DNA of 64,000 nt, from the IMG/VR virus record IMGVR_UViG_3300029544_000195; one strand, given 5' to 3'. This stretch comes from a virus. Shown piece by piece: positions 4,597 to 59,232 of the stretch; the first letter of the stretch is position 1, and every line of letters begins with the position of its first letter. The notes beneath the pieces are model-generated. The model ran no database searches. It was not told where the DNA came from and saw only the letters and a list, made by a program, of their open reading frames with translations. Position numbers and translations under genes: made by a program.

Positions 4597-4911
4597 TTAA
4601 TTCACATAGTTAAACCATACAAGATAACAAGCATTATCTGAAATAAATTCCGCGCTAGTATCCGCGTCATATAAATCTTCTCCAGTAAGCAATGCATCTT
4701 CGGGCAGCGCATTGTAAGCAGCCATATCATCTAAATTACAAATTATCTTAACAATAGATAACTTCTGCAATTTATTAGTTGCGTGTTCAAATAGATATGC
4801 TCGACTTCCAACATTGCAACGATTTTCATTGATGAAGTAATCTAACTGGTCCTTGCTTTTTTCATTATAGCTGGATATCGTCCAGCTACGGCTTAATTCT
4901 TTTGGTGTCAC
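4597..4911 (-). CDS. hypothetical protein (GTG start)
   Basis: AAAGGAGGAT RBS upstream. Co-oriented with flanking minus-strand genes. Confidence 0.4.
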   Translation of the reverse strand: MTPKELSRSWTISSYNEKSKDQLDYFINENRCNVGSRAYLFEHATNKLQKLSIVKIICNLDDMAAYNALPEDALLTGEDLYDADTSAEFISDNACYLVWFNYVN

Positions 4912-4926
4912 AATTTTATCCTCCTT

Positions 4927-5196
4927 TTATACAATAAACTTTAACATAAATTCTTCAAATTCTTCCTGCGAAATAAGCTGAGTATTTACATACTGATAAA
5001 GATTATGTAAAACATAATCACATAATTTCGTATCAGCTTCTATCTTAGCTAAAAATGCCCAAGTTGTAAAAAATGAACGAAGCTGCTCTGGAATATATTC
5101 ATCTTCCCAGCTATTTTCCTCCGCAAACTGATACATAAAATCCACTAAAAATTCCATATTTTTTCTCCTTCCTGATATTAAATTAACTACTCCCAA
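4927..5196 (-). CDS. hypothetical protein (89 aa)
   Basis: AGGAAGGAG RBS. First gene behind the minus-strand bipartite promoter. Confidence 0.4.
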   Translation of the reverse strand: MGVVNLISGRRKNMEFLVDFMYQFAEENSWEDEYIPEQLRSFFTTWAFLAKIEADTKLCDYVLHNLYQYVNTQLISQEEFEEFMLKFIV

Positions 5197-5199
5197 TTG

Positions 5200-5262
5200 T
5201 TTATTAGATATATATAATATGTCTGTTTGCCTTTAATCTAAAGTAGAAATCATATTATGAGC
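5200..5262 (-). promoter_or_regulatory. bipartite phage promoter (minus strand): GCTCATAATATGATTTC ... AAACAGACATATTA
   Basis: Reverse complement matches the bipartite consensus found at 6 other sites. Core at 5215-5225. Confidence 0.5.
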
Positions 5263-5282
5263 ATTTTTTACAGAGTCCGGTG

Positions 5283-5296
5283 GACAGACATATTAA
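5283..5296 (+). promoter_or_regulatory. conserved phage promoter motif GACAGACATATTAA
   Basis: One of ~30 copies. Lies 31 nt upstream of the 5327 start. Confidence 0.5.
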
Positions 5297-5326
5297 TAAT
5301 AGTTTTATACAGAAAGGTGTGATTCT

Positions 5327-6772
5327 ATGAATATCGCAAAAAAAATTGGCAATAATGTCCTGAAAGGACTAAAAAACATCGGGCAAAAGGTGGAATGGTT
5401 TTTCCATAATGTATTTGCTCGAATTGCATTAGGAAAAGATGCATGGAACGAAGCAGCGCGCATCAATATGGAAACCGAAGCGAAAAAGGAATTAAAAGAA
5501 TTTGAACAACAACATCCAAAAGAAGAAGTTCCGGAAGAGCAACAGAAAGTACTTCAAGAAAAAACTTCTGAACAGGAACAAAAAGAGCCGGAATTATCGG
5601 AAAATGAAAGAATTTTACATCGGACGAAAGAAAACTTGGATATGATGGTTGAAAAATTAAATAATTTATATTGCAAACATAAACTGCCGACTCCGGGGAT
5701 TATTTTGGCTCACAACAGAGAAGATGTTTTAAATCTATCAAAAGAAGAAGTTGAAACAGAATTTCAAAAAGCATTCAAGCAAATTGAGAATTCTCCATTA
5801 AAAGAAAAAGAAAAAAATTTATTTTATCGTGGGTTAGGACAATCGCAGGTTTTGCTAAACAGAAAACAAAAATACATGGACAAAGTATTAAACGAAAGCC
5901 ACAAAAACGAGATAAAAGAATCTGAGCATGACCAGCCGGAAATGCAAAAAGAAACTGAATCAGTGATTGATTCGTCCAATAATTTTGAGTCTTTAAATAC
6001 TCAAATAGATGAATTAGAAAAAGATTTACAAGAAAATGAGGAATCTTTTCAGGTTGTTAATTTAAGACCTAAAAAGGAAAATGAGACATTAGAAGAAAAG
6101 AAAGCACGCTTAGGAATTGATGTAATATCCGTACAAGAAACAGAGAAACCTATTCTTACCGGAGAAGATGAGTTAAATGAGATGTTAAAACAGTACAAAC
6201 CTTCTTTGCAAGAAATGAAAACACAATTAATTTTAGCAGCTACACGTGCAGAATCAATGTTAAATGAAATGCCAACAATTGATGCTATTTGCAAAGAAAA
6301 TATTTCTCTATGCGAAAATATTGTGCAACAAAATGTAGCATTAGAGATTTCACGAAATGATGAAAAATATAATATTGGATATGCTGGCAAGGAGATATCT
6401 GTAACCAGAGAGGGTATTATGGCAGGAGATTATGACAATGAGATTGTTGAATTTGGAGCATTTATTTGGGATAAATTAAGTCCGGAAGTAGAGCAAGATG
6501 GCAGTGCACTAGCAGATGCCGGTGATTTACAGGCATTATGTAATTCCGCTGTCGCCTCTAAAGATACTAATAGTATCAGTGAAAAGTCAAATGATATTAA
6601 TGTTTTATCTGGAAATAACATGGACCTTGATGATATGCTTACTCCAGAAACAGAAGTTGAAGACGAAATTAAAAGAGAAAAATTAGATGATTTACTTGAT
6701 AACATTGACAATAGCGGACCGGATGTAGAAAACTCATCGAACGAAATTGATGTTTCTGATATAGCAATTTAA
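5327..6772 (+). CDS. highly acidic Glu/Lys-rich coiled-coil protein (481 aa)
   Basis: Long ORF with RBS. Very low complexity (E/K/D-rich). Driven by the divergent strong promoter. Confidence 0.5.
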   Translation: MNIAKKIGNNVLKGLKNIGQKVEWFFHNVFARIALGKDAWNEAARINMETEAKKELKEFEQQHPKEEVPEEQQKVLQEKTSEQEQKEPELSENERILHRTKENLDMMVEKLNNLYCKHKLPTPGIILAHNREDVLNLSKEEVETEFQKAFKQIENSPLKEKEKNLFYRGLGQSQVLLNRKQKYMDKVLNESHKNEIKESEHDQPEMQKETESVIDSSNNFESLNTQIDELEKDLQENEESFQVVNLRPKKENETLEEKKARLGIDVISVQETEKPILTGEDELNEMLKQYKPSLQEMKTQLILAATRAESMLNEMPTIDAICKENISLCENIVQQNVALEISRNDEKYNIGYAGKEISVTREGIMAGDYDNEIVEFGAFIWDKLSPEVEQDGSALADAGDLQALCNSAVASKDTNSISEKSNDINVLSGNNMDLDDMLTPETEVEDEIKREKLDDLLDNIDNSGPDVENSSNEIDVSDIAI

Positions 6773-6908: not shown

Positions 6909-9032
6909 ATGGATGTAATGAAAGGAAAATATAATAAATTACTGTATATGGGGCGCGATGGTGTTGCCTATTTTTCTATGTTTGTATCGAAGACGCCACT
7001 ACCTTACGAAAGCACATATAGTACATATATTTGTTCTGGACGAGTCCCGGAATATAATCGTGGGTATCCGCTTACTTTACACGGGCATTGGACGAAATCA
7101 AACAAATGGAAATTTGAAGTTGAATCTTTTGAGGAAGATTTGAAAGAAGGATATGTTTTAGAAGAATATTTAATGCAAATTGATGGAGTCGGGGCTGTTT
7201 CTGCTAAAAAATTAGCGGGAGTTAAAGATATTTGGAATTATGATATTTATAATTCTGAACTTTTAGCAAAAAATACTGGATTATCGAACGACCTTTGCGA
7301 AACAGTAATTTCCACATTAAACAAGCAAAAAGGGCGATATGATTTATATTGTTATTTATGCCAATATGGAATTACTGATATTAAGGTGGATAATATAATT
7401 GAAACTTACGGAAATAAGGCACTACAATATATTAAGGATAATCCATATGATATTCTAAGAAAATACAATACTTCATTCGCTGTTATGGATGAAATTGGCT
7501 TTGCAGCCGGACTTAATTACTATAATTTAGATAGGCTTGACGCTATGCTGCATTATGCTATGGATTTATGTACAAAGGACGGTAGTACTTTTGTTCTTAT
7601 CAATGATTTGATTGAGAAAATGTTATGGATAGCAAAAAAAAGCATCTATGGTGTAGAAATTCCGGATGGCTTTTTAGCAATTGCTCTATCAAATGCAAAT
7701 TGGTTATATGTGGATAAAATAAATGACCGAGTTTACTTAAAAGAATATTGGTATCGAGAATATGATATAGCAAGAGGAATTGCCCGCTTAGAAAATACAA
7801 AAACCGTATTAAACATTTCAAAGAAAGATGTTAACTGGGTAGAAAAGAAATTGAATATTACTTATGCATCTTCTCAAAAAAATGCCTTTAATTTGTTGAA
7901 CAGCACAGGCGTTAAAGTGCTAACCGGCGGCCCCGGAACTGGCAAAACAACACTCATAAATGGAATTTTGACGCTTTACAAAGAAAAGTACCCAGATAAT
8001 AAAATTGCTTTATGTGCACCAACCGGAGTGGCGGGCGAGCATATGGCTGAATCTACGAACTCTCCAGCGTCTACCATACATCGGTTATTAGAATATCAGC
8101 CATTTAGTGATGAAGAAGCATCTTACAAAGATATGGATGACCCAATTGATGCGGATTTTATTATCATGGATGAAACTTCTATGACGGACACTAAGTTGAT
8201 GGGAATGTTTTTTAATGCTATTCAATCTGGAAGTTTAGTTTTATTGTGCGGAGATATTGACCAGTTAGACAGTGTTTGTCCGGGAGCCGTTTTGAGAGAT
8301 ATTATTAATTCTAAAAAAGTTGACGTATATCGCTTAGATACACTTTTCCGCCAAAAACAAGGTTCGACCACGATTATTAACAAGGATAAAATTAAAATAA
8401 AAGACTGTGAGTTAGTTATGGATAATCAATTTCAGATTTTACGATATAATTCTGGCAAAGAAATTGATTCTATCTTAACTACAGTTTTAAAAAAGGAAAA
8501 TAACCCACAAATTTTAACGACCCCAAACAAGGGAGCGGCCGGAGTGTATGCATTGAATCATTTAGTTCAGTCATCTTTTCAGTTTGAAGGAAGAGAAATA
8601 CACCGTAATGGATATGTTTTTCATAAAAACGATAAGATTATGATGATTGTTAATAATTATAAAGCCGGTTATTTTAATGGCGATATTGGAAAAATAATTT
8701 CAATTACTGATGCCGGAACTGTAACGATACAAATTGGAAAGAAAACAATCGTAATGGAGCATACATGGTTAGAAGATATGGTTTTAGCGTATGCCATTAC
8801 AATACATAAATCGCAGGGAAATGAATTTGACACTGCAATTATTGTTTTGCCGCAAAATCCAGAAATTCTTCTTAATAAGCATCTAATATACACGGCAATA
8901 ACGAGAGCCAAATCCAAAGTGATTATTTTATCACAAGGAAATGCACTGGAAAAAGCAATTATGAATGATGCTCGGTTTTCAAAGAAAACAGGACTAAAGG
9001 AAAAAATATGTATAACATGTGATAATGTTTAA
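6909..9032 (+). CDS. recD2: RecD2-like ATP-dependent DNA helicase (SF1B)
   Basis: N-terminal RecD2-type OB region. HhH (VSAKKLAGV). Walker A LTGGPGTGKTTL. Walker B FIIMDETSM. C-terminal YAITIHKSQGNEFDTAII helicase motif. Confidence 0.8.
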   Translation: MDVMKGKYNKLLYMGRDGVAYFSMFVSKTPLPYESTYSTYICSGRVPEYNRGYPLTLHGHWTKSNKWKFEVESFEEDLKEGYVLEEYLMQIDGVGAVSAKKLAGVKDIWNYDIYNSELLAKNTGLSNDLCETVISTLNKQKGRYDLYCYLCQYGITDIKVDNIIETYGNKALQYIKDNPYDILRKYNTSFAVMDEIGFAAGLNYYNLDRLDAMLHYAMDLCTKDGSTFVLINDLIEKMLWIAKKSIYGVEIPDGFLAIALSNANWLYVDKINDRVYLKEYWYREYDIARGIARLENTKTVLNISKKDVNWVEKKLNITYASSQKNAFNLLNSTGVKVLTGGPGTGKTTLINGILTLYKEKYPDNKIALCAPTGVAGEHMAESTNSPASTIHRLLEYQPFSDEEASYKDMDDPIDADFIIMDETSMTDTKLMGMFFNAIQSGSLVLLCGDIDQLDSVCPGAVLRDIINSKKVDVYRLDTLFRQKQGSTTIINKDKIKIKDCELVMDNQFQILRYNSGKEIDSILTTVLKKENNPQILTTPNKGAAGVYALNHLVQSSFQFEGREIHRNGYVFHKNDKIMMIVNNYKAGYFNGDIGKIISITDAGTVTIQIGKKTIVMEHTWLEDMVLAYAITIHKSQGNEFDTAIIVLPQNPEILLNKHLIYTAITRAKSKVIILSQGNALEKAIMNDARFSKKTGLKEKICITCDNV

Positions 9033-31848: not shown

Positions 31849-31891
31849 GCTCATAATATGATTTTCGTTTTAATTCAAAACAGACATATTA
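31849..31891 (+). promoter_or_regulatory. bipartite phage promoter (GCTCATAATATGATTTTCG ... AAAACAGACATATTAGAT)
   Basis: Bipartite consensus. Confidence 0.5.
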
Positions 31892-31956
31892 GATATATAA
31901 GGAGAACACAATAACGGAGAGCACATTGCTAAAAAAGAGAAAGGAAGGATATTATT

Positions 31957-33394: not shown

Positions 33395-33742
33395 AGAATA
33401 GAAGATTTGTTAAGGAGTTGAATATAGTAATTTGGCGGAGTCAAGGCAAGTAGGTGTCTTTTACAATAAGTGTGGTTCGACTCCACCACTTCGCATTAAG
33501 CCTAAGCGCTAGGATGACAAACTAGTTTTCAAGAAAGCACTGCACACGTGTGGAATAAAAGCACAGGCGAAGTTAAGGTAACAGATATAGAAAGTCAGTA
33601 TAAGTCCAAAGATATGTCTATGATATATTTGCATCTGGTGAGTATGTTGGAAAGCCGACCTTAATTAAAGACTTAGGCTAAAGTTGAGGTTGAAAACGAA
33701 ACTATGGTTGCATATTGGAAAATGAGCTAGGAGGACTTAGAT

Positions 33743-47234: not shown

Positions 47235-47522
47235 ATGCAGAAAAATAATATTATTGCAAACGCAAAAAAAGAGATTGAGAACTTTGAGGACAAATTGGGT
47301 GAGAATTTTTATGACGCTTTTTAGGAAGACGATAATCTTACCATTGATATGGCGAGAGGTATTTTACATGCCTTTTCTGATTGCAAAACAGAAAGAGAGT
47401 TCCAAGTCGCCAACAATATGCTTATAGGAGCATGTGGCTATAGTATCCAAACACTTATTGAACGAATCAAGGAATTGGACGAGGACCCGGAACATTGTTG
47501 GCGTTGGGAAAATGATTTTTAA
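47235..47522 (+). pseudogene. single reading frame interrupted by an in-frame TAG at 47322-47324 (29-aa N-part with strong RBS + 66-aa continuation without RBS)
   Basis: TAGGAGGA RBS before 47235. After the TAG, the same frame stays open to 47522 with no independent RBS. Confidence 0.35.
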
Positions 47523-47533
47523 TTTGATTTTGC

Positions 47534-47562
47534 AAAAGGCTCCCTTCGGGGGGCTTTTTTGT
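47534..47562 (+). terminator. rho-independent terminator
   Basis: AAGGCTCCCttcgGGGGGCTTttttg. Confidence 0.6.
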
Positions 47563-47581
47563 ATGATTTTTTAATTCTAAA

Positions 47582-47680
47582 CAGACATATTAAGAATATG
47601 AGAACAAATGAGCAATGACATGTGTAAGGAAAATTTTGCTCATAATATCGTTTTCGTTTCAATCCAAAACAGACATATTA
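47582..47680 (+). promoter_or_regulatory. tandem phage promoters in front of the tRNA island (simple copy 47582-47592; bipartite copy 47638-47680)
   Basis: TAAACAGACATATTAAGAAT, then GCTCATAATATCGTTTTCG...AAAACAGACATATTAGTAG. Confidence 0.5.
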
Positions 47681-47781
47681 GTAGTGTAAGGATGATTAAG
47701 AAAAACATTCTTACATGGAGAACACATTAAAGGAGGGCACATAGCGGAGAACACATTTTTGGAGAACACAGCCAGTAAAAT

Positions 47782-47855
47782 AGGGAGCTAACTCAGTTGG
47801 TTAGAGTGCCTGTCTTATACACAGTTGGTCGTGGGTTCGAGTCCCACGCTCCCCA
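47782..47855 (+). tRNA. tRNA-Ile (anticodon UAU), A1·C72 and C27·U43 mismatches
   Basis: D-arm ACTC/GAGT. Anticodon loop CTTATAC. T-arm GTGGG-TTCGAGT-CCCAC. Acceptor AGGGAGC/GCTCCCC. Confidence 0.5.
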
Positions 47856-47954
47856 TTTCTTAAAGTTTGCGGGAAACCTTCTTTCGTATGTTATTAAATG
47901 CAAAGAGAAGTTCTTTAAAGCCCGGAGTGATAACCGCAAACGCTTCGGGCAAAA

Positions 47955-48026
47955 GGAAGATTAGCTCAGTGGCAGAGCGTTCGGCTGTTAACCGAATGGT
48001 CATGGGTTCAAATCCCATATCTTCCT
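47955..48026 (+). tRNA. tRNA-Asn (anticodon GUU)
   Basis: Acceptor GGAAGAT/ATCTTCC. D-arm GCTCAGTGGCAGAGC. Anticodon stem TTCGG/CCGAA with loop CTGTTAA. T-arm ATGGG-TTCAAAT-CCCAT. Confidence 0.75.
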
Positions 48027-48161
48027 CTCCTTAATGCTTGCATGTATCGTGAAACATTTTTCCAATGTATCATGATATGCGTTTGGAACTAATAATCCAT
48101 CTCTTTCGGATAGTTTATTCTGTTATGTCAAGGCGGAAAAGCAAGCACCTTGACAAAACCT

Positions 48162-48233
48162 AGCGGTATCGCCAAGTGGTAAGGCACAGGACTTTGACCC
48201 CTGTATTCGTAGGTTCGAATCCTACTACTGCTG
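48162..48233 (+). tRNA. tRNA-Gln (anticodon UUG)
   Basis: Acceptor AGCGGTA/TACTGCT (one G-U). Anticodon loop CTTTGAC. T-arm GTAGG-TTCGAAT-CCTAC. Confidence 0.6.
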
Positions 48234-48269
48234 CTGTCCAAATATAATGGACATTACCAATACTTTGGT

Positions 48270-48397
48270 TCTGACGTTGGCATTTGCGGAAATGCATCGG
48301 GCGAGAAGAATAAGTTGCAAGAGTTTGTTTTTTTCCCATTTGAAACTTTCTTCATGAACTGCCCGAATTTGTAAGGTTCGAATCCTTACCGTCAGAT
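48270..48397 (+). ncRNA. tRNA-like element with a ~58-nt insertion replacing the anticodon loop
   Basis: Perfect 7-bp acceptor TCTGACG/CGTCAGA. D-arm GGCA...TGCA. Stem CGGGC/GCCCG encloses 58 nt. T-arm TAAGG-TTCGAAT-CCTTA. Confidence 0.35.
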
Positions 48398-48671
48398 TTG
48401 CGCTTCACTTTCTCTAGCGAGGGAGGATAGGAGCGCATAGGACAAACTTCCTGAAGCCGAAATGGTTTAACCAGTCGCAGGTTGGGTCTTGGCAAAAAAC
48501 TGTAACTGTAGAGAGCAAAACAAAGACATTGCGACCAGGTTTTTGCTGGCAGTTATAGACATCTTTAGTGATAACGAGAACTTGCAAAAAGCAAGTCGGG
48601 GAGTTTCAAAGATGTTATTGTTTTCCTTATTTTTTGGGTTGGCCCCCTCTCTTTTTGCGAGAGAGGGGAAT

Positions 48672-48742
48672 GGCGGCTTAGTCAAAAGGCAAGACAATAG
48701 GTTTTCATCCTATGAGTGTGGGTTCGAGTCCCGCAGCCGTCA
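48672..48742 (+). tRNA. tRNA-Glu (anticodon UUC)
   Basis: Acceptor GGCGGCT/AGCCGTC. Anticodon stem ATAGG/CCTAT with loop TTTTCAT. T-arm GTGGG-TTCGAGT-CCCGC. Confidence 0.7.
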
Positions 48743-49305
48743 TTTAAACATGATTATCTCAGTGAAGAAGGAGTTTTCAATCCTGCTGAGACGCATGGTA
48801 ATAAGTTGAATTAATTTGAGATATTGAATTGATTAACAACTTTTATTAAGAAGTGATTCTTGATATGGAGACAGAAACTGTCAACAACGCTGTGTGGTGT
48901 ATCATTATAAAGAGGTCAAAAGCAGAATCCTTGTGGCTGACATAATAGACGCCCGATGTTCGGGAATAATCCGTTGATGTGAGAGGTGTGAGAGACCACG
49001 GACTAAACGGAAATCTCAACAAGTCAGTTTGCCTTGAACCTGAGAAATCAGGGTATAACACAAGAAATTCGTTAAAGTAGCGGTATGGCAGAACTATTAA
49101 ATTTATCTTTTGCTTTATAGAGCAAATAGGAAAAAATAATATTCTCTGAAAGAACCGTGAAATTTGTGGGTATCATTCCCACCCGTGCTTAGACAGTGGT
49201 AAGAAGCCAAGGGTCGCTCCCGAACGCTCAGACTTATCATCACGGTGGCCGAATATGACTGAGTTTATAATGGATAAAGGGAAGCCTTAATCATGTTTAT
49301 TTTTT

Positions 49306-49393
49306 GCAGATATAAGCCTAATTGGTAAGGCAACGCTTTGCTAAAGCGTTAGTAACCGGCAACGGTGTATAGGTTCAAATCCTATTATCTGCG
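49306..49393 (+). tRNA. tRNA-Ser (anticodon GCU), class II with long variable arm
   Basis: Acceptor GCAGATA/TATCTGC. Anticodon stem ACGCT/AGCGT with loop TTGCTAA. Variable arm ACCGGCAACGGT. T-arm ATAGG-TTCAAAT-CCTAT. Confidence 0.75.
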
Positions 49394-49539
49394 TTTGCAT
49401 CACAATAGTGATGTAATAGACCGTTTTAATCTTAGATGGATAAAGATTGTAATGATTTGGCTGTTTTACCAGAACTTAGTTTAGAGCAAGGGGCGCTTCC
49501 GGAAGCGTAAGGTCTCTCTGAATCCATCCAATAACAAGT

Positions 49540-49648
49540 TGATGTGTGGCGGAAAGGAAGACGCAGGAAACCACAAGTACGATGCCAAAGTGAGCCGAAA
49601 GGATATGGACAAAGGCATCATGAGAGGTTCGATTCCTCTCCACATCAA
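49540..49648 (+). ncRNA. tRNA-like element (~109 nt) with expanded body
   Basis: Acceptor TGATGTG/CACATCA. T-arm GAGAGG-TTCGATT-CCTCTC. Internal GATGCC...GGCATC stem. No canonical anticodon arm identified. Confidence 0.3.
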
Positions 49649-49864
49649 GATTCCGGTTCATTACCGGATAAGGCAGGCGTTACGGTAGTCCCTGCTGAAA
49701 TAATTAAAATGCCTGCGTTGGAAGAATATCCAACGCGGGAAACCGTAGGAAATAATAACGAAAAGGAGGTCAAAGGTTTTATTCGTCCAATAATAAAATG
49801 GACAGAGTAACAATGAATTTTAAGAAAGGATAGCGAAAAAGTTTTCGCAAAAAAGGTGATTATT

Positions 49865-50953
49865 ATGGATGTAAATATTAGTATCGGTATGATTATTTTA
49901 GCAGTTATTGTTTTGGTTGTAATCGGTATTATTGTAAAAAATGTGCAGGTGGTTCCTCAATCTTCCTGTCGGATTATTGAACGATTAGGAAAATATAAGG
50001 CAACTTGGCAGGCCGGACTTCATGTAAAAGTCCCATTTATTGATAACGTAGTACGGTATATTACCTTAAAAGAGCAGGTTTTGGATTATCCGCCGCAGAA
50101 TGTTATCACAAAAGATAATGTAACAATGCAGATTGATTCGGTTGTTTATGCAACCATTTTTGACCCTAAGAAATTTACATATGGTGCAGAAGACCCATCT
50201 TCCGGATTACGAAATCTGACGGCAACAACACTTCGAAGCATCATCGGAGAAATGGAATTGGACGAAACGCTCTCGTCAAGAGAAGTTATTAACGGTAAAA
50301 TGCAGAAGATTTTGGATGAAGCAACGGATGCTTGGGGAATTTGCGTCAGTCGCGTAGAAATTAAAAATATTATTCCTCCGGCTGAAATCGAAGAAGTCAT
50401 GACAAAACAGATGCGTGCAGAACGCGAGCGAAGAGAGACATTACTCCAGGCTCAGGCACACAAAGAATCTGTAGTAGCAATGGCGGAAGGAGACCGTCAG
50501 GCTAAAGTGTTAGCCGCTGAAGCAGAAAAAGATGCTGCAATTGCACTGGCAGAAGGCAAGGCTAAGTCAATTAAACTTGTGTATGAGGCAGAGGCAGATG
50601 GTATTCGCATGTTGGCTAATTCGCAGATGAATGACAACGTGCTGCGTTTGAAATCCATTGAAGCAATGAAAGATGTTGCGGATGGACAGGCTACAAAAAT
50701 CTTTATCCCGACAGATTTAAGCCAAAGTATTGCTTCTATGGGAATTTTGGGGGACATGCTTGGTACGGCAGAGCAGAAAACGTCCGATGTATCAAGAGAG
50801 CAGTTGAGAGAAAGCCGGATTCAGGCGAAAACAAATGAGAAATTAGAAAAAGACTCTTGCGTATATGATTTAGAAACTAATGAAATCACACTAAAGGCTG
50901 CTGAATCAAATGCAAAAACATCGTCTGAGTTAAATGAAGATATTTCAAGATAG
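49865..50953 (+). CDS. SPFH/band-7 (stomatin/prohibitin/HflK-C-like) membrane protein
   Basis: N-terminal TM helix. IIERLGKYKATWQAGLHVKVPFID...VTKDNVTMQIDSVVYATI...LRSIIGEMELDETLSSRE fits the SPFH domain. C-terminal coiled-coil tail. Confidence 0.7.
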   Translation: MDVNISIGMIILAVIVLVVIGIIVKNVQVVPQSSCRIIERLGKYKATWQAGLHVKVPFIDNVVRYITLKEQVLDYPPQNVITKDNVTMQIDSVVYATIFDPKKFTYGAEDPSSGLRNLTATTLRSIIGEMELDETLSSREVINGKMQKILDEATDAWGICVSRVEIKNIIPPAEIEEVMTKQMRAERERRETLLQAQAHKESVVAMAEGDRQAKVLAAEAEKDAAIALAEGKAKSIKLVYEAEADGIRMLANSQMNDNVLRLKSIEAMKDVADGQATKIFIPTDLSQSIASMGILGDMLGTAEQKTSDVSREQLRESRIQAKTNEKLEKDSCVYDLETNEITLKAAESNAKTSSELNEDISR

Positions 50954-51174
50954 GAGGTGATTGTATGAATCGGATTAGAGACGAGACTAAAAACAACTCA
51001 TTATAACTTGTGAGTTAAAAAAACAGGATGGTCGCCATCTACTATGTAAAAATATGAGATAATTTTTCGTAAAGCGTTATTTGAAACGCAACGATGTATA
51101 GAGGAAAAAGATAAATCGTTCATAGATGGACGAATGTGGAATTCAACCTTGCATATGCAATACGTGACAGGCGT

Positions 51175-51248
51175 GGCGGTGGAGAGCGATTGGTAGCTCG
51201 CTTAGTGAAATACATTAAGAGGTGTCGGTTCGAGTCCGGCCAACGCCC
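51175..51248 (+). ncRNA. tRNA-like element with non-canonical anticodon arm (9-nt loop or 6-bp stem)
   Basis: Canonical D-arm GAGC-GATTGGTA-GCTC and T-arm GTCGG-TTCGAGT-CCGGC. Acceptor 6/7 bp. Anticodon region CTTAG-TGAAATACA-TTAAG. Confidence 0.3.
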
Positions 51249-51252
51249 TTTT

Positions 51253-51324
51253 GAAAGAGTAGTGTAAAGGTTAAGCGCAACAGTCGGCCACACTGTAGTT
51301 TCGGTTCGATTCCGGACTCTTTCA
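51253..51324 (+). tRNA. tRNA-Gly-like (anticodon GCC) with G33 instead of U33; possible pseudo-tRNA
   Basis: Acceptor GAAAGAG/CTCTTTC. Anticodon stem ACAGT/ACTGT with loop CGGCCAC. T-arm TTCGG-TTCGATT-CCGGA. Confidence 0.4.
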
Positions 51325-51542
51325 TTTTTCTGCTTAGACTATTTTGGTAATCTCGTACGATGAATAGTTGGAAAAACTGTAACTGTGACTAACTATATGA
51401 TAATTACGAGTAAGGCATATAGGCAGTTGCGTGTCTCGGAGTAATATGACAAAGTATTTGGTGACCGGATGCGAGCAGTTTTTAAGAGACATTAAAAAAG
51501 TATGCTAATTCCTGCTTAGGAGGGGAAAAGGAGGATGCGATA

Positions 51543-56943: not shown

Positions 56944-59232
56944 ATGCCTAATAATAAGGAAGAAAGATTACGCGGAATCCGGAAAATGTTTATATTTTGC
57001 GGAGGAATCCTTTATTTATTGCTTTTGTTATTTACCTTACATATGGGCTGTATCAAACCGGAGTATGAAAACAATCCGATAAAGATTATGCAATTAGCAA
57101 TGGAACACATACAAGAAAAGCCGCTTGCTATTTTGCCATTTACGTCATATTCATTTGTTTATCCAATGGTTGGGACTTGTATCTTTGGTATCATAATGTT
57201 ATATGCGTATTTAATGGTAATAAGAAGAGATACAGATAAGGATGCCGGAGGTTCCGCTAAGTGGAATACGGATATGAAGGCGTATAATAAAAAGTATAAT
57301 ACGCCATTTCGTTCGATTAAAACAAATGGAGCAGATAATATAATTTTGGCAAAAGATTTGTATATGTCCATGAACGGAAGCAAAACACGAAGAAACTGTC
57401 ATCAGATTGTTTTCGGAGGGTCCGGTACTGGCAAATCATTTTCGCTTGTTAAGCCAAATGGGTTGCAGATGAATAGCTCCTATGTATTTACTGACCCAAA
57501 AGGAGAATTAACGGAAGCTTTAGCTGGACCATTGGAAGATGCCGGTTATGAAATTAAAATTTTTAACCTTAGTAAAATGTCGGATTCTCTATGCTATAAT
57601 CCGTATGCTTATATTCGAGATGAAAATGGTGTCCGTTCCATGGTAAATTGTATTGTAGAAAATACGCGAAAAGAAGGCACTTCCGGAGGAGACCAGATTT
57701 GGGATGATTCCATGACGGTATTATTACAGGCAATTTCTTTTTACATGATGGAAAAGCTGCCAAAAGAAGAGTGTAATTTATCGACAGCGATGAAATTGAT
57801 TCGTTTGGCAGAAGTGGATGAAAATAATTCTTCTGCGAAATCCGAATTGGATATATTGTTTGATAATTACGAAAAAGCAAATAAAGAAGCCGGTAACCCG
57901 GAAAGTATGGCAACGAAATGTTATAAGGAATTTCGTATTGCATCCGGTAAGACATTGAAATCTGTGTTGATTACAACAATGACTCGATTGAGCGCATTTG
58001 ATTATAGCAATGTAGCTAGTTTATTAAAAAGAGATGAATTGCATTTAGAAGAATTGGGAAGAAAAAAACAGGTTTTGTTTATTATTATTCCTACTGCGGA
58101 TAAGGCATTTAACTTTATTGCTGCTTGTTTGTATACGCAGTTGTTTGAATATTTGTATTATTTAGTAGAAAATATATATCCTCATAGTTATTTTTTACAA
58201 AAGGAAGTAAATGGATTGACGGAAACTTTCTTATGGGGTGAAACGATTGAAGAAGTAAAAGCAAAGAAGAAAATGCTTCAGAGCGCAAAGATTGTCGAAA
58301 AAGAAAATCATTATGAAATTGTCAGTAAAGAAGATATTTTTATTGAACGCTTCCTTAATAAGAAAGCAGCAGAATGGTTTTTAGCTAATGCCGGTGGGAA
58401 AATTGTTCCCGGCGACCGAACGTTACCATATAATATACGTTTTCTATTGGACGAATTTGCGAATGTTGGTAAAATTCCCGGATTTGTTGAAAAAATTGCA
58501 ACGATGCGTTCTTATAAGATGTGGTGTACCATTATCTTGCAGAATCAAAGTCAGTTGAAAAAAATGTGGGATGATGATATGAGTACTATTATTGGAAACT
58601 GCGATACGATGATTTTCCTTGGCAGTCAGGAAAAAGACATGATTGAATATATTCAGGCTATGCTTGGTAAAACAACGAAACGTCAGCAGGGAACTTCTAT
58701 TGGTGGAAAAGGCGGAGGAAACGAGTCTTATAATTATACCGGAACGGATTTGTTAGATTTTAACCAGATTCGTGAAATGGCGGATAATGATTGTATTGTA
58801 TTTATTCGAGGAGAAAAACCTTTTTATACAACAAAATACAATTACACAGAACATCCAAAATATCATTTAACTGGAGACGCTGATAAAGCACTTCGTTATG
58901 AAATTCCATATAATAGTCAACGTGTAATTGATTCTAAAATAGACAAAAAACAATCGCACGATGACAAGGTTGCTCGTTATAAGAAAGAAATCGCGCGAGA
59001 TGAGAAAAAGGTAATTAATGGGCCTAGTTATGAAACTGAGTCAATTTTGAACAAGGTCTGTAATGGAAATCCGGAGCAATTAAAAGAATGTTTGGAACTG
59101 GAACATGAAAACGAAAAGGTTGCGAAAACGGAAACTGAAAAGAAAATAGCAAAAGAAGAAAAAGAAAAATCAGAGAAACTTAAAATTGCTATGCAGGAAC
59201 AGGATGCAAATTTATGGGACATTATGATGTAA
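56944..59232 (+). CDS. VirD4/TraG-like type IV coupling protein (FtsK/T4CP-family ATPase)
   Basis: Two N-terminal TM helices. Walker A VFGGSGTGKSFSL. Walker B/T4CP motif RFLLDEFANVGKIPGF. C-terminal Lys/Glu-rich tail. Confidence 0.65.
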   Translation: MPNNKEERLRGIRKMFIFCGGILYLLLLLFTLHMGCIKPEYENNPIKIMQLAMEHIQEKPLAILPFTSYSFVYPMVGTCIFGIIMLYAYLMVIRRDTDKDAGGSAKWNTDMKAYNKKYNTPFRSIKTNGADNIILAKDLYMSMNGSKTRRNCHQIVFGGSGTGKSFSLVKPNGLQMNSSYVFTDPKGELTEALAGPLEDAGYEIKIFNLSKMSDSLCYNPYAYIRDENGVRSMVNCIVENTRKEGTSGGDQIWDDSMTVLLQAISFYMMEKLPKEECNLSTAMKLIRLAEVDENNSSAKSELDILFDNYEKANKEAGNPESMATKCYKEFRIASGKTLKSVLITTMTRLSAFDYSNVASLLKRDELHLEELGRKKQVLFIIIPTADKAFNFIAACLYTQLFEYLYYLVENIYPHSYFLQKEVNGLTETFLWGETIEEVKAKKKMLQSAKIVEKENHYEIVSKEDIFIERFLNKKAAEWFLANAGGKIVPGDRTLPYNIRFLLDEFANVGKIPGFVEKIATMRSYKMWCTIILQNQSQLKKMWDDDMSTIIGNCDTMIFLGSQEKDMIEYIQAMLGKTTKRQQGTSIGGKGGGNESYNYTGTDLLDFNQIREMADNDCIVFIRGEKPFYTTKYNYTEHPKYHLTGDADKALRYEIPYNSQRVIDSKIDKKQSHDDKVARYKKEIARDEKKVINGPSYETESILNKVCNGNPEQLKECLELEHENEKVAKTETEKKIAKEEKEKSEKLKIAMQEQDANLWDIMM

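Follow-up and report, generated by a model that had tools for sequence, protein, structure and literature searches.

The tRNA cluster of phage T4 encodes two stable RNAs, species 1 and 2 (rnaC and rnaD), which have tRNA-like ends and are matured by the tRNA-processing machinery. Plant-mitochondrial t-elements, the tRNA punctuation model, mascRNA and the tRNA-like RNAs of MHV68 all feature non-decoding modules that are cut by RNase P and RNase Z and thereby define the ends of their neighbours. In tRNA-Sec and allo-tRNAs the acceptor and T helix departs from the standard 7+5 arrangement, with a total of 13 base pairs (bp) in tRNA-Sec. The tRNA arrays of phages and plasmids have been proposed to act in counter-defence, and changes in their anticodon loops to allow evasion of nucleases (PMC10264068, PMC11555353, PMC12803027). 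Passages of PMC5737381 and PMC12286853 place the ROOL RNA near tRNAs, possibly co-transcribed with them, and according to the ROOL passages of PMC12286853 other family members form an RNA cage in cryo-electron microscopy. Few bacterial RNAs are as large or as ornate as ROOL, whose cage structure has been solved. Here a tRNA island in the IMG/VR record IMGVR_UViG_3300029544_000195 is compared with these systems. The whole stretch of 64,000 nucleotides (nt) that was analysed is called the window.

Layout of the island

The region is a promoter-preceded island of non-coding RNA, composed of six ordinary tRNA genes, one ROOL RNA and three non-decoding tRNA look-alikes (elements A, B and C). The tRNAs and ROOL on a mobile element make up a known kind of island; the non-decoding look-alikes appear to be new. 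An earlier note, made from the letters of the sequence, had described a promoter-preceded island mixing canonical tRNAs with tRNA-like elements of abnormal anticodon domain, and this description was borne out. It had counted four aberrant elements; the number is three, since the tRNA-Gly(GCC) passes both tRNA models. tRNA genes were called with ARAGORN (default, intron -i, relaxed -ps80 and -m modes) and with Rfam covariance models, for which the gathering score of RF00005 is 29 bits and sub-threshold matches were reported up to E ≤ 10.

47781–47856, + strand: tRNA-Ile(UAU) (ARAGORN; Rfam 62.1 bits)
47955–48027, + strand: tRNA-Asn(GUU) (ARAGORN; Rfam 75 bits)
48162–48234, + strand: tRNA-Gln(UUG) (ARAGORN; Rfam 61.6 bits)
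48270–48397, + strand: element A, tRNA-Phe-derived look-alike (ARAGORN -i; fold; haplotype variation)
48671–48743, + strand: tRNA-Glu(UUC), adjoining the ROOL 5' end (ARAGORN; Rfam 61.8 bits)
48734–49308, + strand: ROOL RNA (RF03087), full length
49305–49394, + strand: tRNA-Ser(GCU), adjoining the ROOL 3' end (ARAGORN; Rfam 60.1 bits)
49540–49648, + strand: element B, non-decoding Leu-type (class II) look-alike (covariance model; core-helix covariation)
51175–51248, + strand: element C, tRNA-shaped RNA with A33 (ARAGORN relaxed; allele comparison)
51252–51325, + strand: tRNA-Gly(GCC) with G33 (ARAGORN default stringency; Rfam 44.3 bits)

The six tRNAs of the island score 44–75 bits against RF00005. 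The five that the earlier note had recognised (Ile, Asn, Gln, Glu and Ser, with the anticodons given above) are called by both programs at 60–75 bits. The T stem of tRNA-Gln shows a compensatory series U-A / U.G / C-G across relatives. The T-loop consensus GGTTCRANTCC occurs 11 times in the window against 0.11 expected: seven copies lie in tRNAs, three in A, B and C, and one in a 60-nt element at 33435–33494. An isolated tRNA-Glu(CUC) is called by ARAGORN at 1600–1672, 46 kilobases (kb) from the island.

The island was compared with 10 near-identical copies (98.4–99.98% identity) and with more distant alleles: L191–L195 (93.7%), L196 (95.7%) and L020 (92%). Divergence between the window and L191 is uneven. 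It amounts to 4.5–12% in spacers, 1.1% in ROOL, 0.9% in B and 1.4% in both C and tRNA-Gly.

Element B and its family

The acceptor stem of B measures 7 bp, its D stem 3 bp (with a GG loop) and its T stem 6 bp (with GGTTCGATTCC); U8 is present and an anticodon arm is absent. Where the arm would be expected, there are 15 nt of unpaired linker and a 6-bp stem with a loop of 27 nt, which agrees with the earlier description of a ~109-nt element with tRNA-like ends and an internal 6-bp stem. ARAGORN does not call B, and no Rfam match was found at E ≤ 10; B thus stays below the RF00005 threshold and has no anticodon stem-loop. A covariance model of the element (R1) gives 132 bits for the window copy, 98.5 bits for an element at L318:5706–5833 and 25–34 bits for ordinary class II tRNA-Leu, and B is a derivative of a Leu-type tRNA.

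L318 is an IMG/VR phage contig, and its element was found by a scan for T arms unassigned by ARAGORN. It has in common with B the acceptor stem TGATGTG/CACATCA, the D arm and the 6-bp T stem, the last with an A-U to C-G swap. The gene order is also that of the window: ROOL (5047–5607), tRNA-Ser(gct) and the B-like element. Two longer members of the family, L230:3625–3763 and L210:7203–7322, lie in tRNA-sized slots within tRNA arrays.

The core helices (16 pairs) were tested in five members, those of the window, L191, L318, L230 and L210. In this set 98.8% of cells are paired, against 31–53% in slid controls, with the caveat that the L230 and L210 elements were found by a model encoding the tested structure, so that the pair counts lean toward it. 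Compensatory changes are seen in 7 of the 16 core pairs, including 6 of the 7 acceptor pairs, and the covariation score was reached by none of 500 shuffles. The family signature consists of the 7-bp acceptor stem, U8, the D arm UGGCGGAAnGG..ACGC, the 6-bp T stem and no 7-nt anticodon loop, the absence of the loop having been checked in the window and L318. The middle domains vary: L318 has a three-way junction where B has its 6-bp stem and large loop.

In L191, B differs by one substitution, in the D loop, and together with its conserved flanks (49472–49713) by 2 substitutions in 242 nt. The possibility that B is part of a protein gene was considered and rejected: the open reading frame at 49544–49810, called as a gene of 90 amino acids (aa) on two related contigs, runs for only 5 codons in the homologue of L318. 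At least B is thus conserved between a conjugative element and phages, beside ROOL. The earlier note had held that look-alikes scored as noise by covariance models would be decayed pseudogenes. This does not hold: A and B are both noise in Rfam, yet B homologues are conserved with covariation. The B family and the other look-alikes are apparently undescribed in the searchable literature, above all the conservation of B beside ROOL.

All members of the B family, and A as well, combine a 7-bp acceptor stem with a 6-bp T stem. The resulting 13 bp equal the total of tRNA-Sec. However, neither a UCA anticodon nor a Sec-type D arm is present in A and B, their helix is not divided 8+5 or 9+4, and the tRNA-Sec model of Rfam does not match them.

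The ROOL RNA and its flanking tRNAs

ROOL is matched over the full model (positions 1–574 of 574) with 389.7 bits, against a gathering score of 99.1 (E ~6e-91). The earlier note had reported 550 nt of structured non-coding sequence at 48750–49300 as a sign of further small RNAs. The structured RNA is real and belongs to this known family. Its closing helix, at ~48744–49297, begins at most ~1 nt past tRNA-Glu and finishes ~7 nt before tRNA-Ser. Variation among relatives, including the differences from L191, is mostly found in an internal A/U-rich linker at 49094–49140.

For a census of ROOL islands, 120 loci (L203–L322) were fetched from IMG/VR by a conserved-core pattern. Among the 103 phage loci with enough flank, a same-strand tRNA adjoins the ROOL 5' end in 53 and a tRNA adjoins the 3' end in 40; in 10 of the latter it is tRNA-Ser(gct). 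The order ROOL, tRNA-Ser(gct) is seen in L318 as in the window. Both ends are adjoined by tRNAs in 28 of the 86 loci with enough flank. ROOL would thus typically be excised from a tRNA array with tRNAs on both sides, and the RNA of the window is expected to assemble into a cage as other members do.

The full-length match, the length of ~575 nt, the setting within a tRNA island and the variable internal linker are common to this ROOL and published loci. The carrier differs: here it is a conjugative element and not a phage, whereas published loci come from phages, prophages and megaplasmids. Neither the abutment of tRNAs on both sides nor non-decoding look-alikes are mentioned in the ROOL passages of PMC5737381 and PMC12286853.

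Look-alikes across ROOL islands

An orphan T arm was defined as a perfect T loop on a 5-bp stem outside any tRNA called by ARAGORN. The control loci were scans from a search with the SPFH gene of the island (see below), reused only for this purpose.

Window: 3 orphan T arms, 7 ARAGORN tRNAs
Relatives of the element: 9 orphan T arms, 19 ARAGORN tRNAs
Control loci, 1.27 megabases (Mb): 2 orphan T arms, 23 ARAGORN tRNAs
ROOL phage loci, 1.0 Mb: 78 orphan T arms, 658 ARAGORN tRNAs

The counts point to an enrichment of ROOL arrays in non-decoding tRNA-shaped RNAs. tRNA finders and Rfam miss a recurrent part of the tRNA islands of mobile elements. Some of these RNAs are mini elements of ~50 nt, made up of an acceptor stem and a T arm, which are located just before the first protein gene past several ROOL arrays. 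One 51-nt mini element, TTCCAGTAC...GGTTCAAGTCC...GTACTGGAA, is conserved in seven loci (L225, L244, L249, L264, L266, L273 and L301). In the six that were inspected (all except L225) it ends the array immediately before the ribosome-binding site of the next gene.

Among 460 unique ARAGORN tRNAs in L203–L322, 20 (~4%) lack U33 and have C (12), G (5) or A (3) instead; a recurrent tRNA-Met(CAU) with G33 is part of this set. Two tRNAs with four-base anticodons in 8-nt loops were called by ARAGORN, ccta at L019:5129–5200, in a relative of the element, and caga at L317:6206–6281, in a ROOL phage locus. The ccta anticodon includes CUA and might serve to read TAG. Outside the island, the window element at 33435–33494 is a fourth uncalled tRNA-like RNA (60 nt). 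Its acceptor stem of 7 bp is perfect, its T arm carries GGTTCGACTCC, and one further hairpin replaces the D and anticodon arms (fold z = -1.8).

Other structured RNAs were found at related loci. L001 and L318 (719–787) each carry one type II hammerhead ribozyme. L001 also carries RAGATH-27, beside an RtcB gene, the two RNAs of L001 being located at 604–668 and 4774–4857. A transfer-messenger RNA (tmRNA) lies at L230:1537–1961. Dulem virus 39 was considered as a related locus and set aside: it carries RAGATH-27, a hammerhead ribozyme and RtcB, not ROOL.

Element A and tRNA genes with inserts

In A the acceptor stem comprises 7 bp and the D stem, which bears a GG loop, 4 bp; the T arm, with GGTTCGAATCC, has a stem of 6 bp. 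Between the strands of its anticodon stem, where a 7-nt loop is expected, lie 58 nt. The anticodon stem extends into two 5-bp helices with an apex of 21–27 nt, and the rod-like insert proper measures 45–51 nt. With introns allowed, ARAGORN calls A as tRNA-Phe(gaa), i(35,51), with a 51-nt insert at default stringency. The earlier note had reported a 58-nt insertion replacing the anticodon loop, too short for a group I intron, and both observations stand. No Rfam match was found for A at E ≤ 10, which leaves it below the 29 bits of RF00005. A does not combine U33, a 7-nt loop and a purine at position 37, which after removal of the insert is C or U by allele; its discriminator is U. The fold z is -3.05. 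The best non-self match of a model of A is a genuine tRNA-Phe(gaa) (33 bits), and A is therefore a derivative of tRNA-Phe.

Across five haplotypes, ~14 variation events were counted in A. Only one falls in the 66 core paired columns, where about half would be expected; the others are found in the D loop, the 8–10 spacer, the variable loop and the insert apex, including a 6-nt deletion in the apex. The helices of the insert are invariant. The L191 and L014 haplotypes have two A-U pairs where the others show a G.U pair and an A-C mismatch; these two changes lengthen the stem into the supposed anticodon loop. A minimum-energy fold in which the insert pairs with its own U-run was rejected, as haplotypes that delete the U-run give it no support.

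The insert resembles no known intron that was looked for. Group I introns have ~200 nt or more with a catalytic core, against 45–51 nt here, and no intron family matched at E ≤ 10. Inspection of the fold for the bulge-helix-bulge of archaeal and eukaryal protein-spliced tRNA introns (3-4-3, usually at 37/38) revealed only a single bulge of 2 nt on the 5' strand and a 7-nt internal loop on the 3' strand, with the insert at 31/32–32/33. For A and B there is also no tmRNA call by ARAGORN -m, and no Rfam tmRNA match lies in the island.

Such inserts are not unique, and the earlier statement that they have no precedent was too strong. In other ROOL loci, six tRNA genes called by the intron mode of ARAGORN (L212 Tyr, L248 Leu, L303, L287, L288 and L260) carry inserts of 28–71 nt on the 5' side of the anticodon loop. 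Those of L212, L248 and L303 adjoin the ROOL 3' end. The insert-free loops of L212 Tyr (CUGUAAA) and L248 Leu (CUUAAAA), read by eye, are both normal. The inserts of L248, L303 and L288 have GGTCT...TAACAGCAA in common while their tRNA bodies differ, a pattern that a small mobile insert would show.

Element C and tRNA-Gly

C forms a cloverleaf with one G.A acceptor mismatch, a 5-nt variable region and the loop G-A-AAU-A-C, which can be drawn as a 6-bp anticodon stem with a 7-nt loop or as a 5-bp stem with a 9-nt loop. The non-canonical loop claimed by the earlier note is thus present, with A33, and its 9-nt version is one possible drawing. For the window copy of C, ARAGORN needs the relaxed setting -ps80 to make its call, Ile(aat); default stringency is enough for the alleles of L020 and L191. 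Among the tRNA models of Rfam the best clan match of C is tRNA-Sec, with 17.8 bits (E = 6.5) against a gathering score of 47; C also stays below RF00005 and lacks U33. None of A, B and C shows the 8+5 helix, 6-bp D stem, long variable arm and UCA anticodon of tRNA-Sec, and the helix of C is 7+5. All 3 substitutions in C keep pairing: pair 2 of the T stem is U.G, U-A or C-G by allele, and a C-to-U change in the D stem leaves a G.U pair.

The tRNA-Gly has the anticodon loop C-G-GCC-A-C, so the G33 noted earlier is real. Its classification as aberrant was not upheld, given 44.3 bits against 29 and a call by ARAGORN at default stringency. Stem substitutions in relatives all keep pairing, and one further substitution lies in the T loop.

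Promoter-like motif, terminator and leader

The features upstream of the first tRNA are as follows.

47534–47559, + strand: intrinsic terminator ending the upstream operon (11-bp stem with 5 G-C pairs, then a T run)
47579–47592, + strand: promoter-like motif AAACAGACATATTA, copy 1 (one of 31 copies of ACAGACATATTA)
47667–47680, + strand: promoter-like motif, copy 2 (preceded by the companion box CTCATAATATCGTTTTCGTTT; invariant in all related loci)
47717–47770, + strand: leader with three exact GGAGAACACA repeats (repeat count against expectation)

With no more than one mismatch, 31 copies of the 14-nt motif ACAGACATATTA were counted in the window. Most genes are preceded by one; every copy faces the gene downstream, mostly 25–60 nt ahead of its ribosome-binding site. 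With up to 3 mismatches, 52 matches were found against 19.4 expected, a number reached by none of 100 shuffles. Many copies have an upstream CTCATAATATGATTTTCGTTTT box. This pattern suggests an element-specific promoter or regulator site. Both island copies sit after the terminator and before tRNA-Ile. The earlier note had called them two tandem phage promoters. The two tandem copies were recovered; "phage" does not fit, since the motif is promoter-like and found across the element. Other sites include 5284, 6866, 9887, 10783, 19512, 26904, 31880, 44835, 52730 and 55448. A sigma-70 reading was rejected: 13 sites against 14.4 expected, with no excess over shuffles.

The repeat GGAGAACACA occurs 8 times in the window at up to one mismatch, against 2.5 expected. 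It appears again at 31901–31925, just after the motif at 31880, as one exact copy and one with a single mismatch. On the + strand between 47559 and 52000, the only terminator-like sites lie inside the SPFH gene (49865–50953) or coincide with the T arm of tRNA-Gly.

Proposed processing and possible roles

A terminator precedes the island, two motif copies follow that terminator, and up to 52000 the only other terminator-like sites are those in the SPFH gene and the Gly T arm. A single long transcript is the simplest reading of this layout. It would contain, in order, Ile, Asn, Gln, A, the structured spacer, Glu, ROOL, Ser, a spacer, B, the SPFH mRNA, C and Gly. RNase P (at 5' ends), RNase Z and exonucleases (at 3' ends) and the CCA-adding enzyme recognise the corner formed by the tRNA acceptor stem and T arm. 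With cuts by host RNase P and RNase Z or exonucleases at each tRNA-shaped module, the transcript would yield the six decoding tRNAs, ROOL and, from between B and C, the SPFH message. A, B and C retain the parts that these enzymes would read (acceptor stem, U8, GG D loop and T arm); they probably do not decode, because a usable anticodon loop has been lost. They would be tRNA-derived modules kept as processing punctuation, also yielding stable tRNA mimics. We give an even chance to this reading, in which a single transcript is cut at tRNA-shaped modules and the look-alikes serve as cutting signals or stable mimics. The most likely role of the decoding tRNAs, Gly with G33 among them, is to add to the host tRNAs or stand in for them in an element that is rich in A+T.

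Known systems offer partial parallels. The T4 cluster and the island are both tRNA operons of mobile elements with stable RNAs of tRNA size or larger, likened here by description and not by sequence; the T4 RNAs are not associated with ROOL. The likeness to t-elements, in shape and position only, is that B and C bracket the SPFH message and that mini acceptor/T-arm elements precede genes in related loci. However, the t-elements and their kin are organellar or eukaryotic, and A and B are larger, with conserved extra domains. The counter-defence arrays are also tRNA arrays of mobile elements; their variants keep the 7-nt anticodon loop, unlike A and B.

Several points weigh against processing as the whole explanation. 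The single transcript and every cleavage are extrapolated from established tRNA processing, and internal promoters may exist in the island; the sigma-70 scan gave no more sites than expected. Ordinary tRNAs would punctuate equally well; anticodon domains that were remodelled and then conserved, and the common 7+6 bp helix of A and the B family, are not explained by punctuation alone. The search with the A model found no homologue outside the element, and A diverges from L191 by 8.2%, as fast as spacers. Conservation of the island is mosaic, with a 98-nt spacer (47857–47954) identical to L191, which makes low divergence no more than suggestive. The pair counts of the B family are subject to the search bias described above. 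The remodelled domains and the 13-bp helix leave room for other roles, as decoys, as partners of ROOL and, for A, as a spliced gene.

Under a splicing reading, A and similar genes would be interrupted genes for working tRNAs: a host or element factor, for example an endonuclease with an RtcB-type ligase, would remove the 28–71 nt insert, in A to give tRNA-Phe(GAA). The default-stringency call of A once an insert is allowed, its closest non-self match and the six further genes with inserts at the same side of the loop (three of them adjoining ROOL) are in line with this, as are the normal insert-free loops of L212 and L248, the sequence common to three inserts in differing bodies, and the RtcB gene beside the tRNA and ribozyme island of Dulem virus 39. 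Yet the insert-free loop of A would be A/G-U-GAA-C-U with a pyrimidine at 37 and the discriminator is U instead of the A73 of tRNA-Phe, while in L191 and L014 the supposed loop is drawn into two more A-U stem pairs. There is no bulge-helix-bulge, the insert is far below group I size and matches no intron family, no RtcB or splicing endonuclease turned up among the window proteins, and B, without any anticodon loop, falls outside such a scheme. We consider splicing unlikely. Decay is improbable to a similar degree: the look-alikes would be functionless pseudogenes that persist since the element is young and recombining. Noise-level Rfam scores of A and B, a sub-threshold score of C, the spacer-like divergence and indels of A, and patchy conservation that also covers a spacer fit this picture. 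However, unrelated phage contigs carry homologues of B in which the acceptor stem is fully compensated and the 6-bp T stem conserved; C keeps pairing in all its substitutions, with three pair types at one position; and variation in A avoids the helices (one of ~14 events, about half expected), those of the insert being invariant in five haplotypes. Simple decay is accordingly unlikely for B and C; for A the case is less clear.

Decoys that soak up or misdirect tRNA-binding factors, such as tRNA-modifying or tRNA-sensing proteins or defence nucleases that cleave host tRNAs on entry of foreign DNA, are rather unlikely; in such a scheme the G33 of Gly and the A33 of C would protect the tRNAs of the element itself. 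The proposed counter-defence role of mobile tRNA arrays, the 20 ROOL-island tRNAs without U33 and the retention of tRNA-shaped cores with remodelled anticodon domains would agree with such a role. So would the neighbourhood, in which many small genes follow one another on one strand and encode RadC, SocA_Panacea and YodL domains, as is typical of entry and anti-defence regions. But the anticodon loop, missing from A and B, is what anticodon nucleases generally recognise, so that the two elements would be poor decoys for nucleases of this kind; no such nuclease, target or phenotype has been described in this host, and the evidence does not separate decoys from processing signals. Very improbable, in our view, is a functional tie of the B family to ROOL, whose cage would bind it, enclose it or act on it. 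All members found lie in ROOL-bearing tRNA islands, the order ROOL, tRNA-Ser(GCU), B is common to the conjugative element and the phage contig L318, and the ROOL passages of PMC12286853 propose that cages may hold tRNAs. The search set, however, was chosen for ROOL, so that co-occurrence is partly built in; there are four independent members only, those of L230 and L210 lie ~2.5 kb from ROOL, and most ROOL loci searched are without a B-like element. A broader proposal, distinctly unlikely, places A and the B family, with their common 13-bp helix and remodelled anticodon domain, in a single class of non-decoding tRNA-like RNAs that has so far gone undescribed. The class would travel with ROOL on phages and conjugative elements and act as its substrate, cargo or cofactor, and the 5'-side inserts might be a new small tRNA insert removed or used by that system. 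If true, this would be the first concrete lead to the function of ROOL. The look-alikes are testable candidates for RNAs that are matured with ROOL or act with it. The roles listed by the earlier note (processing substrates, decoys and pseudo-tRNAs) still span the readings that the evidence allows.

Spacers and the SPFH gene

The remaining features of the island are listed below.

48398–48670, + strand: structured spacer with several hairpins, containing the first AAAAACTGTAACTGT (RNAalifold; fold z; no known family)
49395–49539, + strand: spacer with hairpins (last ~68 nt within the block conserved with B)
49649–49864, + strand: structured SPFH leader (hairpin CCGG-UUCAUUA-CCGG 5 nt past B)
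49865–50953, + strand: SPFH/Band 7 gene within the island (Pfam Band_7, E = 1.8e-36)
51372–51430, + strand: second AAAAACTGTAACTGT (hairpin with GGCAGTT as in the first copy; weak, two copies only)

The 273-nt spacer at 48398–48670 folds with -86 kcal/mol and 84 pairs in RNAalifold (fold z = -2.53). Among relatives, 2 of its pairs show compensatory changes, 7 one-sided compatible changes, and 2 are broken. No Rfam match was found for it at E ≤ 10, and it could be an undescribed RNA instead of a mere spacer. The first AAAAACTGTAACTGT forms one strand of a 10-bp helix in this spacer. The earlier note had placed a repeat at 48497 and 51366 and taken it as a sign of further small RNAs. Two copies exist, at 48495 and 51372; as a standalone signal the repeat was rejected, 8 matches at up to 3 mismatches against 4.6 expected not being significant.

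The 470 nt from tRNA-Ser to the SPFH start codon (49395–49864) have a fold z of -4.38. In the hairpin at 49395–49416, a G.U to A-U and a C-G to U.G change leave the pairing intact, and 49649–49713 is invariant in all relatives. A near-identical hairpin, CCGG-YUCAUUA-CCGG, is found at 49653–49667 and at L319:1276–1294, in an unrelated ROOL phage contig, in both cases 4–5 nt past a tRNA or look-alike. Its loop resembles the anticodon loop of tRNA-Met.

The carrier element and its relatives

By its gene content the carrier is a conjugative element of gut Clostridia and not a recognisable phage. A VirD4/TraG coupling protein gene lies at 56944–59232 (T4SS-DNA_transf, E = 2e-61), and a protein with Mob_Pre and T2SSE domains is also encoded. 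Further proteins include RecD2-like and UvrD helicases and AAA/VWA proteins; other domains are SocA_Panacea, RadC, YodL, HD, DUF1653 and NT5C. No capsid, portal, terminase or tail family was matched among the window proteins scanned. The phage context assumed by the earlier note thus gives way to gene content of the conjugation type with no virion gene detected.

The exact 362-aa SPFH product is indexed in 298 blocks of an assembly collection, on human-gut contigs of 220–406 kb, and the neighbouring 95-aa protein is found on contigs of up to 967 kb, with Clostridium sp. AF37-5 as the NCBI source name. The element is therefore probably integrated in a chromosome. It is common in human-gut metagenome assemblies, so expression data may already exist. 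The SPFH protein cluster includes an entry from Monoglobus pectinilyticus, and assemblies under both of these names carry the island.

Searches for wider relatives of the island were made with several queries. Exact 22-mers from the 3' ends of A and B had no match in IMG/VR, and blastn against phage and plasmid records returned generic tRNA or SPFH similarity only. An SPFH-based search of IMG/VR, GTDB genomes and JGI metagenomes yielded only relatives at 46–63%, none with the island, and SPFH homologues at 68–69% identity (P0006, P0010 and P0114) are likewise without a tRNA island.

A 95-codon gene at 47235–47522 has an in-frame TAG where the near-identical L011 has CAG (Gln), which makes it a nonsense allele or a readthrough site. 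Recoding of stop codons was considered and rejected: code 11 covers 92% of the window and no tRNA with a CUA anticodon is present.

The alleles and relatives differ in gene content around the SPFH gene. In L020 a YbaK-type aminoacyl-tRNA editing-domain protein and an NfeD protein are encoded directly upstream of it (111–1207), a position occupied in the window by B and the structured leader. L202 (NZ_OY725741.1, "plasmid 17" of Monoglobus pectinilyticus in PLSDB) carries sporulation genes, coaD, rsmD and recG around an NfeD-SPFH pair and looks like a chromosome fragment.

Uncalled look-alikes are also present in relatives of the element. In L019 they are located at 7430–7487, 7540–7588 and 7922–8023. 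Those of L019 and L187 include two mini acceptor/T-arm elements of ~50 nt and a 102-nt element in which a 7-bp stem with a 5-nt loop replaces the anticodon arm. A 113-nt look-alike at L187:11844–11956 is located between the HicB and Lar genes.

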